Shown here: positions 14,269 to 56,260 of the stretch, piece by piece
Numbering within the stretch: the stretch's first letter is position 1
How the letters are laid out: each line of letters starts with the position of its first letter
Assembly (NCBI RefSeq): GCF_964213995.1
Contig: NW_027590388.1
Coordinates: 62,001-126,000 of the forward strand
DNA length: 64,000 nucleotides
Direction of reading: 5' to 3'
Origin: Mustelus asterias
Taxonomy: Eukaryota
Translations under genes and position numbers: made by a program
The notes under the pieces: model-generated
What the model was told of the DNA's origin: nothing
The model's database searches: none
The model's input: the letters and a program-made list of their open reading frames with translations, nothing else

Positions 14269-15459
14269 AGTGGGAATTCTGTTCACAAACAGGGCATATA
14301 AAGACACAAACTCAATTTACAGAATAGTGGTTGGAATGCGAATACTTACAGCTAATCAAGTCTTAAAGGTACAAACAATGCGAGTGGAGAGAGCATCAAG
14401 ACAGGCTAAAGAGATGTGTATTGTCTCCAGACAGGACAGCCAGTGAGACTCTGCAAGTCCAGGCAAGCTGTGGGGAGTACAGATAGTGTGTCATGAACCC
14501 AATATCCCGGTTGAGGCCGTCCTCGTGTGCGGAACTTGGCTATCAGTTTCTGCTCAGCGACTCTGCGCTGTCATGTGTCGTGAAGGCAGCCTTGGAGAAC
14601 GCTTACCCGAAGATCAGAGGCTGAATGCCTGTGACCGCTCAAGTGCTCCCCAACAGGAAGAGAACAGTCTTGCCTGGTGATTGTCGAGCGATGTTCATTC
14701 ATCCGTTGTCGCAGTGTCTGCATGGTTTCCCCAATGTACCATGCCTCGGGACATACTTTCCTGCAGCGTATCAGGTAGACAACGTTGGCCGAGTTGCAAG
14801 AGTATGTACCGTGTACCTGGTGGATGGTGTTCTCACGTGAGATGATGGCATCTGTGTCGATGATCCAGCACGTGTTGCAGAGGTTGCTGTGGCAGGGTTG
14901 TGTGGTGTCGTGGTCACTGTTCTCCTGAAGGCTGGGTAGTTTGCTGCGGACAATGGTCTGTTTGAGGTTGTGCGGTTGTTTGAAGGCAAGAAGTGGGGGT
15001 GTGGGGATGGCCTTGGCGAGATGTTCGTCTTCATCAATGACATGTTGAAGGCTCCAGAGGAGATGCCGTAGCTTCTCCGCTCCGATGAAGTACTGGACGA
15101 CAAAGGGTACTCTGTCCACCGTGTCCCGTGTTTGTCTTCTGAGGAGGTCGGTGCGGTTTTTCGCTGTGGCGCGTCGGAACTGTCGATCAATGAGTTGAGC
15201 GCTATATCCTGTTCTTATGAGGGCATCTTTCAGCATCTGGAGGTGTCTGTTGCGATCCTCCTCATCCGAGCAGATCCTGTGTATACGGAGGGCTTGTCCG
15301 TAGGGGATGGCTTCTTTAACGTGTTTAGAGTGGAAGCTCTGCACTCACATTGTTTGTACCTTTAAGACTTGATTAGCTGCAAGGATTCGCATTCCAACCA
15401 TTATTCTGTCAATTGAGTCTGTGTCTTTATATGCCCTGTTTGTGAACAGAATTCCCACT

Positions 15460-15990: not shown

Positions 15991-16351
15991 TTGTAGAGGG
16001 CAATGTTGTCAATCAGTGGGAGGGGCTTGTTCCCCAGTGTTCAGAATGGAGACAACTTGTCCATCAAACTGCATCAACCCTGAGTCCCAATGTCTTATTG
16101 ATGAGGCAGAGCGGTAGCAGAGAAGGAAAAAGAAAGGAAAATAAAAACAGTAAATGCTGGAAAATCTCAGCAGATCTGACAGCATCTGTGGAGAGAGAAT
16201 ACAACCAACGTTTTGAGACTGGATGACCCATAGACAGAGCTTGTACACGTGTAAACAGAGCATGTAAACTTTGACACCTCCACGTACCCTTGTACACCTC
16301 TATCAATCTACTTTGCTCCAAGGAGAACAACCCCAAGTTATCCAGCCTAAC

Positions 16352-16646
16352 TGATGCGCGTCAATGAGCACATGGAATCAAGGCTTTAGTATTGAAGGCT
16401 TTAATACAGTAACAATGAAACTACTAACACGAATACACCAGTTCAGACTGAAGGGGTCCTGCCGGAGCAGGGGGTCTTATACACTGCCACCGGAGGCGGG
16501 ACCCCACTGGAATGTGCCATGGTAACACTTATAACAGGTAAACACCCTAACCCAACAACATAGTACAACCCCCACAGTAATAACACCCTAGCCCAACAGT
16601 AACATGGTAACAAACCCCAGTGGTGAACCAACGATGGTTCACCACA
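16352..16646 (-). repeat. 3' LTR of the Gypsy element
   Basis: Direct repeat of 20738-21032. Confidence 0.97.
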
Positions 16647-16718
16647 TTCACCCCTCCTTTAAGACAAAAGGTGGCGGGGTGGACGAAAACAGACAATAAC
16701 AAAAAAAAATCACAGGAT

Positions 16719-19700
16719 TCACAAGTCCAGACGGTCTGGAGGACCGCACCGACGCTGCGATCTCCTCAACACCGGTTGCGAAACCGGATCAGGTGCTTGT
16801 AGTGGTTCTCTCCAAGTAATGTGTGGCTGTCCCTTCAAGGACTCCCGGGCCGGCCGGCCCTGGTGAGGCGATGGTGCAGGGGATCCTGGAACGTTTGGTG
16901 GTAGTGGTGGTGGTGGTGATGATGGTGGCGCCGATCTCCGAGTCTCAGGCAAGCTGTACATGGGAGTAAAAGTGTTATGCACTGGTCCCGGTGCTGACCG
17001 CGCCACGTCTGGGGAAGTAATGAGGAGTAGTGGATTTGTGACTGGGGGAATAGGAGCGACAGGGGTTGCTACGTCCCCTGCGGGCGCCAGGTCTCTAATG
17101 GAGACAGTGTCCTCTCGCCCGTCAGGATATGCCACATAGGCATACTGAGGGTTGGCGTGGAGGAGTTGGACCGGTTCGACCAAGGGGTCGGACTTGCGAG
17201 CCCTCACATGGCGCCGCAGAAGGACGGGTCCTGGGTACGTCAACCAGGCTGGCAATGAGGTCCCCGAGGACAACTTCCGAGGGAATGAGAACATCCTCTC
17301 GTGGGGAGTAGCATTGGTTGCCGTACACAGGAGGGAGCGGATAGAATGGAGCGCATTTGGAAGGACCTCCTGCCAACGGGAGACTGGAAGGCCCCTGGAT
17401 TTCAATGCCAGTAGGACAGCCTTCCAGACTGTAGCATTCTCCCTTTCCACCTGTCCGTTACCCCTAGGGTTGTAGCTCGTGGTTCTACTAGAGGCAATCC
17501 CGAATGAGAGCAGGAATTGCCTCAAGTCGTTGCTCATGAACGACGAGCCCCTGTCGCTATGAATATAGCAGGGGTACCCGAACAGGGTAAAAAGTTCACT
17601 GAAAACCTTGATGACGGTGGCAGTTGACGTGTCCGCACAGGGGAAAACAAACGGAAACCGGGAATATTCGTCTATTATATTGAGAAAATAGACATTCCGG
17701 TCCGTTGAGGGAAGAGGGCCCTTAAAATCCACACTCAGCCTCTCAAAAGGGCGAGTGGCCTTGACCAAATGTGCCCGGTCTGGTCGATAAAAGTGTGGTT
17801 TGCATTCTGCGCAAATCCGACAGCTTCTAGTTACTGACCTGATCTCCTCCACCGAGTAGGGCAGGTTGCGGGCTTTGATGAAGTGGTAGAGTCTGGTGAC
17901 TCCAGGATGACACAGATCATTGTGGAGAGCCTTCAAGCGGTCCTCCTGCATGATGGCGCATGTTCCGCGCGAGAGGGCATCCGAGGGCTCATTGAGCTTC
18001 CCTGGACGATACATAATATCGTAATTATAGGTGGAGAGCTCAATTCTCCACCGCAAGATCTTATCATTCTTGATCTTGCCCCTCTGCGTGTTATTGAACA
18101 TAAACGCCACGGATCGTTGATCCGTGATCAGGGTGAACCGCTTACCTGCCAGGTAATGGCGCCAGTGTCTGACTGCCTCCACAATGGCCTGAGCCTCCTT
18201 TTCCACCGCTGAGTGCCGAATCTCTGGGCCTTGAAGGGTGCGGGAAAAAAACGCGACGGGCCTGCCTGCCTGGTTTAGTGTGGCGGCTAGGGCGAAGTCA
18301 GATGCATCACTCTCCACCTGGAAAGGGATGGATTCATCCACCGCGTGCATCGTGGCTTTCGAGATGTCGCTTTTCAAAACCTTGAAGGCCAATTGGGCCT
18401 CCGGCGTAAGTGGGAAGGTCGTGGACTTAGTGAGCGGACGAGCTTTGTCCGCGTAGTTGGGGACCCACTGTGCATAATACGAAAAGAACCCGAGGCATCT
18501 CCTCAGTGCTTTCGTGCTAGCGGGCAAGGGAAGTTCAGTGAGTGGGCGCATACGGTCTGGATCAGGGCCAATGACCCCGTTTTCCACCACGTATCCGAGG
18601 ATGGCTAACTTACGCGTACGGAATACGCACTTCTCCCTGTTATAGGTCAGATTCAGGCGAGATGCAGCGCGCAGAAAGTGTTGGAGATTCGTGTTGTGGT
18701 CCTGCTGGTCATGGCCGCAGATGGTGACGTTATCCAGGTACGGGAAGGTAGCCCGCAACCCATTCTGGTCCACCATTCGGTCCATAGCACGCTGGAAGAC
18801 CGAGACCCCATTGGTGACACCAAATGGAACCCTGAGGAATTGGTATAGACGACCATCCGCCTCAAAGGCCGTATATTGTCGGTCCTCTGGGCGGATGGGG
18901 AGTTGATGGTAGGCGGACTTAAGGTCTATGGTAGAAAACACTCGGTACTGCGCAATCTGATTGACCATATCAGAAATGCGCGGGAGAGGATACGCATCCA
19001 GCTGCGTGTATCTATTAATGGTCTGACTATAGTCGATGACCATCCGAGGTTTGTTCCCGCTTTTGACTACCACGACCTGCGCTCTCCACGGACTAGCACT
19101 GGCCTGTATGATCCCTTCCTTGAGGAGCCGCTGAACCTCAGATCTAATAAAGATCCGGTCCTCAGCGCTGTAACGCCTACTTTTAGTAGCGATGGGCTTG
19201 CAGCCAGGTACCAGATTTTTAAAAAGGGATGGTGTCGTGATCTTCAGGATGGATAGATTGCACGCGGGGCGCTTTGGGCAATTTGGAGGCTGCGGCTGGT
19301 TCCCTACTGCCAGTGAAGGGAGTGGCCCACCGTACTGTAGGATCACACTCTTCATGTGGACCATAAAGTTTAGTCCGAGGATAATTGGCGCGCAAAGGTG
19401 AGGTAGCACAAGGAGCCTGAATTGCTCGTAAACTGTGCCCTGTACCTCAAGAGTTACCATACATCGTCCTTGGATCGGTACAGACCGGGACTGTGATGCC
19501 ATGGAAATTGTCTGTTTGGCAGGGAGAATCCGGAGTCCACACCTTTTAGCAGTTTCAGGGTGTATGAAACTTTCGGTGCTCCCACTGTCAAACAGACAAT
19601 TCACAGTTCTGCCACTAACCTTTACCTCCATCATAGAATGTTCCAGTCTGTAATGCCTGGTCTGGTCCAGAGAGATCGACGCCACCGTTGGCCCCTGGGC

Positions 19701-20714
19701 GTCACTGCATGCTGCCGATGTGGATGCTGAGGACCCCTGCTGGTCGCTCCTAGTCGTCGTGGACCATGATGGCCGCCCCCATGAATCGCACGTGGGCGAG
19801 GGCGCCAAGCGCAGCGACTCCTGGTGGTCTTCCTCCTCCTCTGTTTGCCACGATGGCGCCGTCCTGAGATCGCACGTGGTCGGACCTCGTGGGTACTGCA
19901 ACGCCGAAAGAGATGGTCTCCGTTCTGGAGGGTTACAAACTGCACTGCCGTTTTTAGGTCTGGACCTACAGACTTTGCCGTAGTGGCCTTTTTTACCGCA
20001 CTGGCTGCAGATTGCCGTTCTTGCCGGACACTGTTTCCGTGGATGCTTGGCCCCACCGCAAAAATAGCATCGCTGGCCACCTGGAGCTGCCGCCGTCGTC
20101 GAATCGATCTGGGAGCGCGGGTTCGCGGGGCGAGGAGGGAGCAGAGCTTGCTCCAACCACGTTGACTGCACGTGGTCCTCGGGGTACAGCGCCAAGCTCT
20201 TCGACGCCGCCTCCAACCTCGCGGCCATCCCCATTGCCTGGGTCAAGTTGAGTTTCCCCTTTTCTAGTAATTTAAGCCTGATGTACGAGGACCCTACCCC
20301 TGCTACGAACGCGTCTCGGGCGAGGTCGTACATGTACTGCTCGGCGGAGACGTCCTTACAGTCGCAACCCCTGGCAAGCTGCAGGAGCTCATTGGCATAA
20401 TCCTCTATGGTTTCGCCCGACTGCCGACGTCGTGTAGCGAGGAGGTAACGAGCATGTATCTCGTTGGGTGGCGTAATGTACCTATTCTTTAGGAGCTCGA
20501 CGGCACCCTGGTAAGTGGGAGCTGCACGAATGGCTAGGTAAATCGTGTCGCTTACCCTCGCGTGGAGGACCTGGAGTCTATCACTGTCCGTAGTGATAGC
20601 TACCGAGGCTGCCAGGTAGTCCTCAAAGCACTTCCACCAATGGTCGAATGTGTTAGCTGCACCGACCGCACGTGGGTCCAGTGTCAGACGATCCGGTTTT
20701 AGAATCTGTTCCAT
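16719..20714 (-). CDS. Gag-Pol polyprotein, single uninterrupted ORF, 1331 aa
   Basis: Two CCHC knuckles (CYFCGGAKHPRKQC, CSQCGKKGHYGKVC), protease LFDSGS, RT (IDLKSAYHQ, PFGVTN, YLDN), RNase H (ESDASD, EKEAQA), integrase HHCC + D,D,E (SVDF, HSDRG, QVER). Confidence 0.95.
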   Translation of the reverse strand: MEQILKPDRLTLDPRAVGAANTFDHWWKCFEDYLAASVAITTDSDRLQVLHARVSDTIYLAIRAAPTYQGAVELLKNRYITPPNEIHARYLLATRRRQSGETIEDYANELLQLARGCDCKDVSAEQYMYDLARDAFVAGVGSSYIRLKLLEKGKLNLTQAMGMAARLEAASKSLALYPEDHVQSTWLEQALLPPRPANPRSQIDSTTAAAPGGQRCYFCGGAKHPRKQCPARTAICSQCGKKGHYGKVCRSRPKNGSAVCNPPERRPSLSALQYPRGPTTCDLRTAPSWQTEEEEDHQESLRLAPSPTCDSWGRPSWSTTTRSDQQGSSASTSAACSDAQGPTVASISLDQTRHYRLEHSMMEVKVSGRTVNCLFDSGSTESFIHPETAKRCGLRILPAKQTISMASQSRSVPIQGRCMVTLEVQGTVYEQFRLLVLPHLCAPIILGLNFMVHMKSVILQYGGPLPSLAVGNQPQPPNCPKRPACNLSILKITTPSLFKNLVPGCKPIATKSRRYSAEDRIFIRSEVQRLLKEGIIQASASPWRAQVVVVKSGNKPRMVIDYSQTINRYTQLDAYPLPRISDMVNQIAQYRVFSTIDLKSAYHQLPIRPEDRQYTAFEADGRLYQFLRVPFGVTNGVSVFQRAMDRMVDQNGLRATFPYLDNVTICGHDQQDHNTNLQHFLRAASRLNLTYNREKCVFRTRKLAILGYVVENGVIGPDPDRMRPLTELPLPASTKALRRCLGFFSYYAQWVPNYADKARPLTKSTTFPLTPEAQLAFKVLKSDISKATMHAVDESIPFQVESDASDFALAATLNQAGRPVAFFSRTLQGPEIRHSAVEKEAQAIVEAVRHWRHYLAGKRFTLITDQRSVAFMFNNTQRGKIKNDKILRWRIELSTYNYDIMYRPGKLNEPSDALSRGTCAIMQEDRLKALHNDLCHPGVTRLYHFIKARNLPYSVEEIRSVTRSCRICAECKPHFYRPDRAHLVKATRPFERLSVDFKGPLPSTDRNVYFLNIIDEYSRFPFVFPCADTSTATVIKVFSELFTLFGYPCYIHSDRGSSFMSNDLRQFLLSFGIASSRTTSYNPRGNGQVERENATVWKAVLLALKSRGLPVSRWQEVLPNALHSIRSLLCTATNATPHERMFSFPRKLSSGTSLPAWLTYPGPVLLRRHVRARKSDPLVEPVQLLHANPQYAYVAYPDGREDTVSIRDLAPAGDVATPVAPIPPVTNPLLLITSPDVARSAPGPVHNTFTPMYSLPETRRSAPPSSPPPPLPPNVPGSPAPSPHQGRPARESLKGQPHITWREPLQAPDPVSQPVLRRSQRRCGPPDRLDL

Positions 20715-20737
20715 ACTCTCTGTTTACTGTATTAAAT

Positions 20738-21032
20738 TGATGCGCGTCAATGAGCACATGGAATCAAGGCTTTAGTATTGAAGGCTTTAATACAGTAACA
20801 ATGAAACTACTAACACGAATACACCAGTTCAGACTGAAGGGGTCCTGCCGGAGCAGGGGGTCTTATACCCTGCCACCGGAGGCGGGACCCCACTGGAATG
20901 TGCCATGGTAACACTTATAACAGGTAAACACCCTAACCCAACAACATTGTACAACCCCCACAGTAATAACACCCTAGCCCAACAGTAACATGGTAACAAA
21001 CCCCAGTGGTGAACCAACGATGGTTCACCACA
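20738..21032 (-). repeat. 5' LTR of the Gypsy element
   Basis: Direct repeat of 16352-16646; TATAAG at 20867-20862 and ATTAAA at 20791-20786 on the minus strand. Confidence 0.97.
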
Positions 21033-21354
21033 CTAACATTGTAACTATAATTCCTCATCCCTGAAACCATTTTGATAAATCTCCTCTGCACCCTGTCAAG
21101 GAGCCTCACATCCTCCATAATGTGTGTGGTGATCACTGGTTTGCACAGACCCAGGTATTCTGTGTTCCTGTCTGTGATCTCATTACATACTTAAAATTGC
21201 ACAGTGACATCACCCCCGCTCCCCGGGGATTTCCTCAACTGGGAGATTTTTCTCTGATGCCAATGCTTCTGATATCTTTCCAGCTGCAGGCTCCAGCAGG
21301 AGATTTTAATATTAAAATCAGTTAAATTGTTTCAGAGGTGAGTGTTTGTGACCA

Positions 21355-55170: not shown

Positions 55171-55499
55171 TTCCAGAAAGGGAGGAGAATGTTACGTGAC
55201 AACCAGAATATCAGTTTCAAATTTCTATCCTGTGCTTACATTCATTGCTTTGATAGATGTTTTTATTTACAAGGGATTAGAATGGAAGGATTTTCAGTCA
55301 GAAACATCTTGATTCATTTGGACACGACTATCATCAGCGATCAAATGTCAGAGGAACACTGATGCCCTGTTCAAAAAGATTTCAATCATCAGTGCGAATG
55401 GAAAAGTTGTGTGATGCACATTCCCAAGAGAGAGAGAGAGATTTCCAGGAAAAGAGACATAAGAATATATGAACAAATGAACTATGAGCAGGCCACTCA

Positions 55500-56260
55500 G
55501 GCCGTTTCAGTGCTCAGCGCCGACAACTGCCAGTTTCCAGATGCAATTTTACAACTCATCCGCTTCATCCTGGACCACAATGTCTTCACCTTCAACAACC
55601 AGTTCTTCATCCAGACACACGGAACAGCTATAGGGACCAAATTCGCACCTCAATATGCCAACATCTTCATGCACAGGTTCAAACAAGACATCTTCACCGC
55701 ACAGGACCTTCAACCGATGCTATACACTAGATACATTGATGACATTTTCTTCCTTTGGACTCATGGTGAACAATCACTGAGACAACTATATGATGACATC
55801 AACAAGTTCCACCCCACCATCAGACTCACCATGGACTACTCTCCGGAATCAGTTGCATTCTTGGACACACACATCTCCATTAAGGATGGTCACCTCAGCA
55901 CCTCACTATACCGCAAGCCCATGGATAACCTCACGATGCTCCACTTCTCCAGCTTCCACCCTAAACACGTTAAAGAAGCCACCCCCTATGGACAAGCCCT
56001 CCGTATACACAGGATCTGCTCAGATGATCGCAACAGACACCTCCACGCGCTGAAAGATGCCCTCATAAAGAACAGGATATGGCGCTCAACTCATCGATCG
56101 ACAGTTCCGACGTGCCACAGCGATAAACCGCACCGACCTCCTCAGAAGACAAACACGGGACATGGTGGACAGAATACCCTTTGTCGTCCAGTACTTCCCC
56201 GGAGCGGAGAAGCTACGGCATCTCCTCTGGAGCCTTCAACATGTCATTGATGAAGACGAA
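55500..56260 (+). mobile_element. PLE reverse-transcriptase fragment
   Basis: GTAIGTKFAPQYANIFM, RYIDDIFFLW, FLDTHI, SFHPKHVK. Confidence 0.88.

Follow-up and report, generated by a model that had tools for sequence, protein, structure and literature searches.

The window, a 64,000-nt stretch of Mustelus asterias DNA (contig NW_027590388.1), contains a young, intact Gypsy retrotransposon on its minus strand (Table 1), situated amid ORFs for C2H2 zinc-finger proteins. The element has the traits of the Ty3/Gypsy elements (Metaviridae): LTRs of the TG...CA type, a 5-nt target duplication, a polypurine tract, and the order gag-protease-RT-RNase H-integrase. Among solved structures, that of Ty3 is nearest to its reverse transcriptase (RT). 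The two 295-nt LTRs differ at 2 positions (99.3% alike). The gag ATG is found at 20714, and the leader of 23 nt between the end of the LTR and this codon contains no TGG; the first-pass annotation had described an intact Gypsy element with just such a leader, and all of its coordinates hold. The junction between LTR and leader occurs in 102 exact copies in the 3.68-Gb host genome, the region is identical across the best 30 loci fetched from that genome, and the contig carries a further copy of the element at a distance of about 135 kb. An assembly artefact was rejected on the basis of the 102 exact junctions and the identity of the 30 loci. Since the exact junctions and the 99.3% likeness of the LTRs indicate that the family was recently active, it must possess a primer, though it lacks a TGG.

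Table 1. Features of the Gypsy element and of its predicted priming region (window coordinates)
Feature	Position	Strand	Remarks
Young intact Gypsy element	16352-21032	minus	between LTR outer ends; LTRs, TSD and single ORF
5' LTR	21032-20738	minus	295 nt, TG...CA
3' LTR	16646-16352	minus	295 nt
Left TSD copy	21033..21037	minus	GTTAG, 5 nt
Right TSD copy	16347..16351	minus	GTTAG, 5 nt
TATA-like box	20867-20862	minus	TATAAG; putative function; spacing common to related host-genome families
Initiator-like motif	20832..20837	minus	TCAGTC; A at 20835 is the predicted transcription start
LTR arm (predicted 3' end of self-primer)	20786..20798	minus	includes ATTAAA at 20791-20786
GCC just beyond arm	20783..20785	minus	predicted cut junction and start of second stacked helix
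Spacer between LTR end and primer site	20737	minus	single A; same in 36/36 testable elements
Primer-binding site (predicted)	20724..20736	minus	13 nt; complement of LTR arm
Single ORF	16719..20714	minus	gag-protease-RT-RNase H-integrase, 1331 aa
Two CCHC zinc knuckles in gag	19968..20069	minus	aa 216 and 236
Polypurine tract	16647..16660	minus	ends in AA, adjoins 3' LTR
3' LTR copy of arm	16400..16412	minus	putative working poly(A) signal and alternative primer source

The surrounding zinc-finger exons form a cluster on both strands with 84-nt repeats, at 9.6-10.7, 24.2-25.7, 40.0-41.2, 44.2-45.5, 51.4-52.7, 57.1-57.9 and 62.7-63.6 kb; the repeats suggest a further array at 5.0-6.4 kb, where the scanned frame gave no zinc-finger match. 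Two other segments gave weak matches: 14571-15344 (minus strand) to GIY-YIG, probably a Penelope-like piece, and 55363-56250 (plus strand) to RT. Each LTR of the Gypsy element opens with a perfect 11-bp hairpin at the start of U3 (21031-21006 and 16645-16620, on the minus strand; the first 42 nt fold at -21.7 kcal/mol), which at the 3' LTR directly follows the polypurine tract; a similar inverted repeat is present in related families of the host genome.

One nucleotide past the LTR, positions 20736-20724 are the exact 13-nt reverse complement of 20798-20786, an LTR segment (hereafter the arm) ending in ATTAAA. This complement had been noted in the first-pass annotation, and both the coordinates and the shuffling results agree with it: none of 5000 dinucleotide shuffles of the LTR yielded a 13-nt complement to the leader, the longest being 12 nt (in 2 shuffles), and a chance origin was accordingly rejected. 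The 5' copy of the arm is 49 nt from the primer site. As a whole, the 124-nt 5' region folds with an ordinary energy (z -0.52), so the signal is a placed helix and not global stability. It had also been stated that the hairpin can form only at the 5' LTR; this stands for the local hairpin, but the identical arm copy in the 3' LTR (16412-16400), being part of the same RNA, could pair with the primer site at long range.

Relatives were collected by two protein searches of the host genome, which produced 60 loci of other subfamilies, and by scans of metagenome and genome contigs, which gave 80 and 6 loci, respectively, with gag proteins 31-45% identical. The contigs bearing these latter relatives appear to be animal DNA. 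After four loci with less than 70 nt upstream were dropped from the total of 147 (window element included), the remaining 143 were grouped at 75% gag identity, which gave 44 clusters. When every cluster was represented by its first member, with no selection, 12 of 12 pairs were formed in 23 of the 44 and at least 11 in 30; the corresponding figures for mononucleotide shuffles were 0/176 and 1/176. The 28 canonical families discussed below are each represented by the best member of a cluster, with a CA end and no fewer than 11 of 12 pairs required. Sixteen of the 44 clusters failed this selection; some of them are still in register with 9-10 pairs, while others appear rearranged or truncated. 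The pairing is real and clade-wide. Among the 120 RT matches listed, the closest named relatives are in rays and catsharks (74-83%), followed at about 61-66% by corals, anemones, a tunicate, a sea cucumber and a nematode. The gag scans revealed no relatives in viral contigs. Six contigs from bacterial MAGs (L171-L176) carry eukaryote-type retrotransposons, three of them with both LTRs, and are likely host contamination of the bins. At locus L169 the LTR end and primer site are doubled in tandem within some 70 nt upstream of gag.

The first-pass annotation had proposed looking for covariation between the primer site and the LTR segment, and the two arms of the helix do change together. In an alignment of 27 distinct arm pairs from the host genome 96.3% of 351 cells are paired, and changes on both sides affect 7 of the 13 pairs (37 cells). 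The covariation score is 0.328 as against 0.105 for shuffled alignments (0/500 reach it) and at most 0.094 for slid registers, with the caveat that related sequences can beat shuffles. Across the 28 families helix positions 1-3 are almost invariably A-T and positions 5-12 are variable; at these eight positions the arms of one family form 7.9 pairs on average versus 4.0 for cross-family combinations, only 28 of 756 of which reach 7. Divergence of the arm roughly tracks that of gag: 1 of 13 positions at 89-95% gag identity, and 5-7 of 13 from the window element at 65-69%. Changes in the arm are matched in the primer site, the exceptions being L042 and L046. Within the window element's own family the search turned up no compensated variants; one single-base variant of the primer site was found, uncompensated, and two further variants proved to be junctions to unrelated sequence.

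The 117 loci in register contribute 1404 cells: 1357 Watson-Crick, 8 G-U, 10 A-C and 29 other. Since G-U is no commoner than A-C, wobble does not seem to be favoured, unlike the situation in an ordinary structural helix; in the 28 families, preselected for at least 11 of 12 pairs, the scarcity of G-U is partly a selection effect. The scarcity is in keeping with copying of the primer into its binding site as the plus strand is made, and strict selection could also produce it. In loci L042 and L065 the arm and the primer site belong to different subfamilies; these loci are candidates for the one-cycle intermediates that such copying predicts, or for plain point mutations.

The position of the helix is fixed relative to the LTR. 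It begins one nucleotide (A) after the CA of the LTR in all 36 elements with at least 11 pairs and an LTR end fixed from the 3' LTR, while the loop varies from 24 to 87 nt across families and the distance from stem to ATG from 0 to 37 nt. With the stem starting at the LTR edge, the 3' end of the arm points into U5, as is required of a primer. Directly after the arm, 23 of the 28 families have RCC, giving an AAA/RCC junction. When the stem was enforced in folding models, the first three bases past the arm had a mean predicted pairing probability of 0.66 versus 0.30 in loop shuffles. This second helix is predicted above the shuffles in 20 of 28 families and not above them in 8 (Wilcoxon p 2e-4; the families are not independent). 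It frequently takes the form of a short hairpin that RCCT/AGGY closes and that would stack on the primer helix; the second helix of the window copy is weak (0.39, shuffles 0.37). What this analysis adds is the conserved AAA/RCC junction, where the cut is predicted and a second helix stacks, together with the 7 of 28 families that have no canonical poly(A) hexamer in the arm (see below). In 15 of the 20 elements displayed, AA closes the polypurine tract ahead of TG; the other 5 alignments are offset or begin inside the LTR, so the position given for the cut may be out by one base.

The TATAAG motif precedes the initiator-like TCAGTC by 32 nt, and the A of the latter is 37 nt upstream of the paired segment. 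This spacing is kept in 7 of 7 host-genome elements examined (in L034 only by way of a second initiator-like motif); in the host-genome families the TATA lies 82-88 nt, and the initiator-like motif 50-55 nt, before the 3' end of the arm. The start site placed about 35 nt upstream of the pairing segment by the earlier analysis is thus supported by the conserved spacing, at a predicted 37 nt. No consistent promoter motif was found across the 20 metagenome families shown. Inside the LTR of L109 and L174, some 40-75 nt upstream of the arm, a branch-point, a pyrimidine tract and CAG together look like a strong splice acceptor; (trans-)splicing could set the 5' end of elements of this type in some hosts.

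Covariation and geometry together support the earlier suggestion that the element may self-prime, and we put the likelihood of self-priming in some form at about 85%. Probably, though with less assurance, the route is that of Tf1, in which the 5' LTR copy of the arm and RNase H supply the element's own RNA in place of a tRNA. Transcription would start some 37 nt upstream of the arm, and in the 5' RNA the arm would fold onto the primer site. A cut by the element's own RNase H, as in Tf1, would follow at or within one base of the AAA/RCC junction, where the two helices are predicted to stack, and would release a capped fragment of ~50 nt with its 37-nt 5' part unpaired. The 3' end of this fragment, pointing into U5, would prime minus-strand DNA, and the overlap for strand transfer would come from the ~15-30 nt that separate the cut from the poly(A) site. 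During plus-strand synthesis the primer would be copied, with the result that the primer site is rewritten from the arm; this would explain why both arms drift together. Should the helix mask the 5' poly(A) signal as well, that effect would be secondary. In Tf1 the primer consists of the transcript's first 11 bases, which pair and are then released by RNase H cleavage (PMC7175516; here and below the papers cited are represented by the excerpts available to us), and the 37-nt 5' extension ahead of the primer proposed here has no precedent in the excerpts examined.

That extension would be avoided if the arm copy in the 3' LTR, on the same or a co-packaged molecule, paired with the primer site, the poly(A) tail and the final 15-30 nt were removed by cutting or trimming, and the RNA's own 3' end acted as primer. 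We regard this as a possibility of lesser weight. The 3' copy is identical to the 5' one and stands at the 3' end of the RNA because the arm usually holds the poly(A) hexamer (21/28 families), and the short hairpin that represents the second helix in many families would form there too. Against it, the 5' copy, so close to the primer site, would presumably fold first during transcription, and the mechanism demonstrated for Tf1 employs the 5' copy, to judge from the available excerpts. The data do not separate the 5' from the 3' LTR copy as the primer. It is improbable that the stem serves instead to keep the 5' poly(A) signal hidden or to regulate translation of gag, priming being left to something else. 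A(A/T)TAAA is located inside the arm in 20 of 28 families, or 21 if L109, where the hexamer straddles the junction, is counted, and the stem is close to the ATG. The seven families with no hexamer in the arm nevertheless pair perfectly, and L091, L092, L095 and L163 have a separate one in the loop; hiding the signal therefore is not the defining role of the stem. Nor would this function need a fixed distance of one base from the LTR; it would tolerate G-U pairs, which are not enriched, and it leaves the element with no primer. Of the original proposal that the stem conceals the 5' poly(A) signal, what survives is a possible side benefit. Least credible of all is priming by a host tRNA, tRNA half or other small RNA, with the LTR match secondary. 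Half-tRNA priming is known in Copia elements (PMC6317226, PMC10886601), and our sample of host tRNAs was small (31 distinct genes, 10 anticodon types). The longest complement to these 31 genes was 7 nt at each of the 7 primer sites tested, which together with the missing TGG agrees with the original claim that there is no tRNA primer site. As a control, both Mag-like copies inspected in the host genome show CA-G-TGGCGAC after the LTR. Furthermore, the primer site is not the same in close subfamilies and changes along with the LTR; a host RNA of fixed sequence could not keep up with this.

A different kind of alternative concerns ancestry, namely that we are dealing with an aberrant member of Tf1/sushi that has lost its chromodomain and inherited a mechanism already described. 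Elements of that group are found in vertebrates, and self-priming is predicted for them (PMC6317226, PMC4600332); our RT tree lacked a labelled Tf1/sushi reference. We consider this very doubtful. In agreement with the claim that there is no obvious chromodomain, the 10 Pfam hits of the window ORF include neither a chromodomain nor SH3_Tf2-1, and PF00385 was detected in none of the 120 RT relatives listed. The gag profile had no match in the PDB at E up to 10. Tf1/sushi is close to Ty3, against which the RT-RNase H of the window element scores 186 bits and a Mag-like protein 249 bits. The host genome supplied no chromovirus reference: none of 17 Chromo loci has pol homology, and the 20 SH3 loci from an SH3_Tf2-1 search resemble, by reading of their sequences, Gmr1-type or retroviral pieces. 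A quick maximum-likelihood tree of 50 RT segments, from which 16 loci with short or no RT were excluded, united the window element and 33 relatives on one branch (length 0.93, SH-aLRT 99; midpoint root, no bootstrap, long branches meeting), set apart from the few outgroups, 15 rows that we take to be Mag-like from their gag and one presumably Gmr1-like. Independence from Tf1/sushi is likely.

A pair of CCHC knuckles in gag is a feature of the Mag lineage. The gag of the window element, described previously as Mag-like, does have this pair and a remote similarity to Mag (E 7e-9 and 4e-7), but the term applies to gag alone: its RT is 27-35% identical to a Mag-like RT and falls on the separate branch, and the TGG site present in both Mag-like copies inspected is absent. 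Like members of the Mag lineage, which in the available excerpt are compact single-ORF elements with short LTRs (PMC11117352), the window element is compact, with a single ORF and short LTRs. Cigr-1 is known from a tunicate, molluscs and annelids (excerpts of PMC6238403 and PMC8556966), and a tunicate protein is among the 120 listed RT matches; identity with the Cigr-1 clade, compared by description, is a lead only. A motif search in the part of the published supplementary files that was covered found no sequence that would name the clade.

The class of mechanism is already known from Tf1; the window element would work like Tf1, but no chromodomain was found in it. Repbase entries reportedly call some invertebrate Gypsy families self-primed, so a prior description is quite possible. 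Self-priming has been described, in the literature excerpts at hand, for Tf1, Tf2, Tj1, the Tf1/sushi group, Tcn1 and TAR; no description for a chromodomain-less animal Gypsy clade was found in those excerpts (including PMC3601003, PMC3670739 and PMC12440569), Repbase Reports lying outside their scope. Like Tf1 and Tf2 of Schizosaccharomyces pombe, Tj1 of S. japonicus and the Tf1/sushi elements, the window element is a Ty3/Gypsy element without a tRNA site, whose primer site complements its own LTR (PMC7175516, PMC4600332, PMC5341516). It differs from Tf1 in the predicted position of the arm, ~37 nt into the transcript, and in that this arm in most cases overlaps with the poly(A) hexamer, measures 9-18 bp and is followed by RCC; from Tf1/sushi as a whole it differs in having no chromodomain, two CCHC knuckles and an RT on a separate long branch. 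In plants, self-priming has been predicted for Tcn1 (Gypsy) and TAR (Copia; Houba, Osr-1) where a complement of at least 10 nt starts 0-5 nt after the LTR (PMC6317226), and the same rule predicts it here. Tcn1 is a plant chromovirus and TAR a plant Copia lineage, unlike the window clade; these lineages show self-priming to have arisen more than once, which makes the present case less surprising. Unconventional priming has also been proposed for Skipper of dictyostelids and the fungal GalEa, both devoid of TGG (PMC5006619, PMC6934838). Unlike the window element, Skipper has no LTR complement and GalEa has its hairpin within the internal region.

It is an even bet, in our judgement, that the whole of the following picture is correct: a Gypsy clade spread across animals (by protein hits in sharks and rays, corals, a tunicate, a sea cucumber and a nematode) evolved self-priming on its own, separately from Tf1, by means of a stretch within the LTR which doubles as poly(A) signal and is cut at AAA/RCC, the primer rewriting its own site in each cycle so that the pair drifts, with the RNA 3' end possibly serving as primer. 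If this is true, a widespread and currently active animal lineage would join the few LTR elements able to do without a host tRNA. Control by tRNA fragments would not reach such elements, and they would be missed or misread by annotation tools requiring a tRNA site. The geometry, with its fixed spacer, conserved cut junction and predicted 50-nt primer, allows one to ask how often self-priming has evolved, and whether a single segment of 13 bases can be both primer and poly(A) signal.
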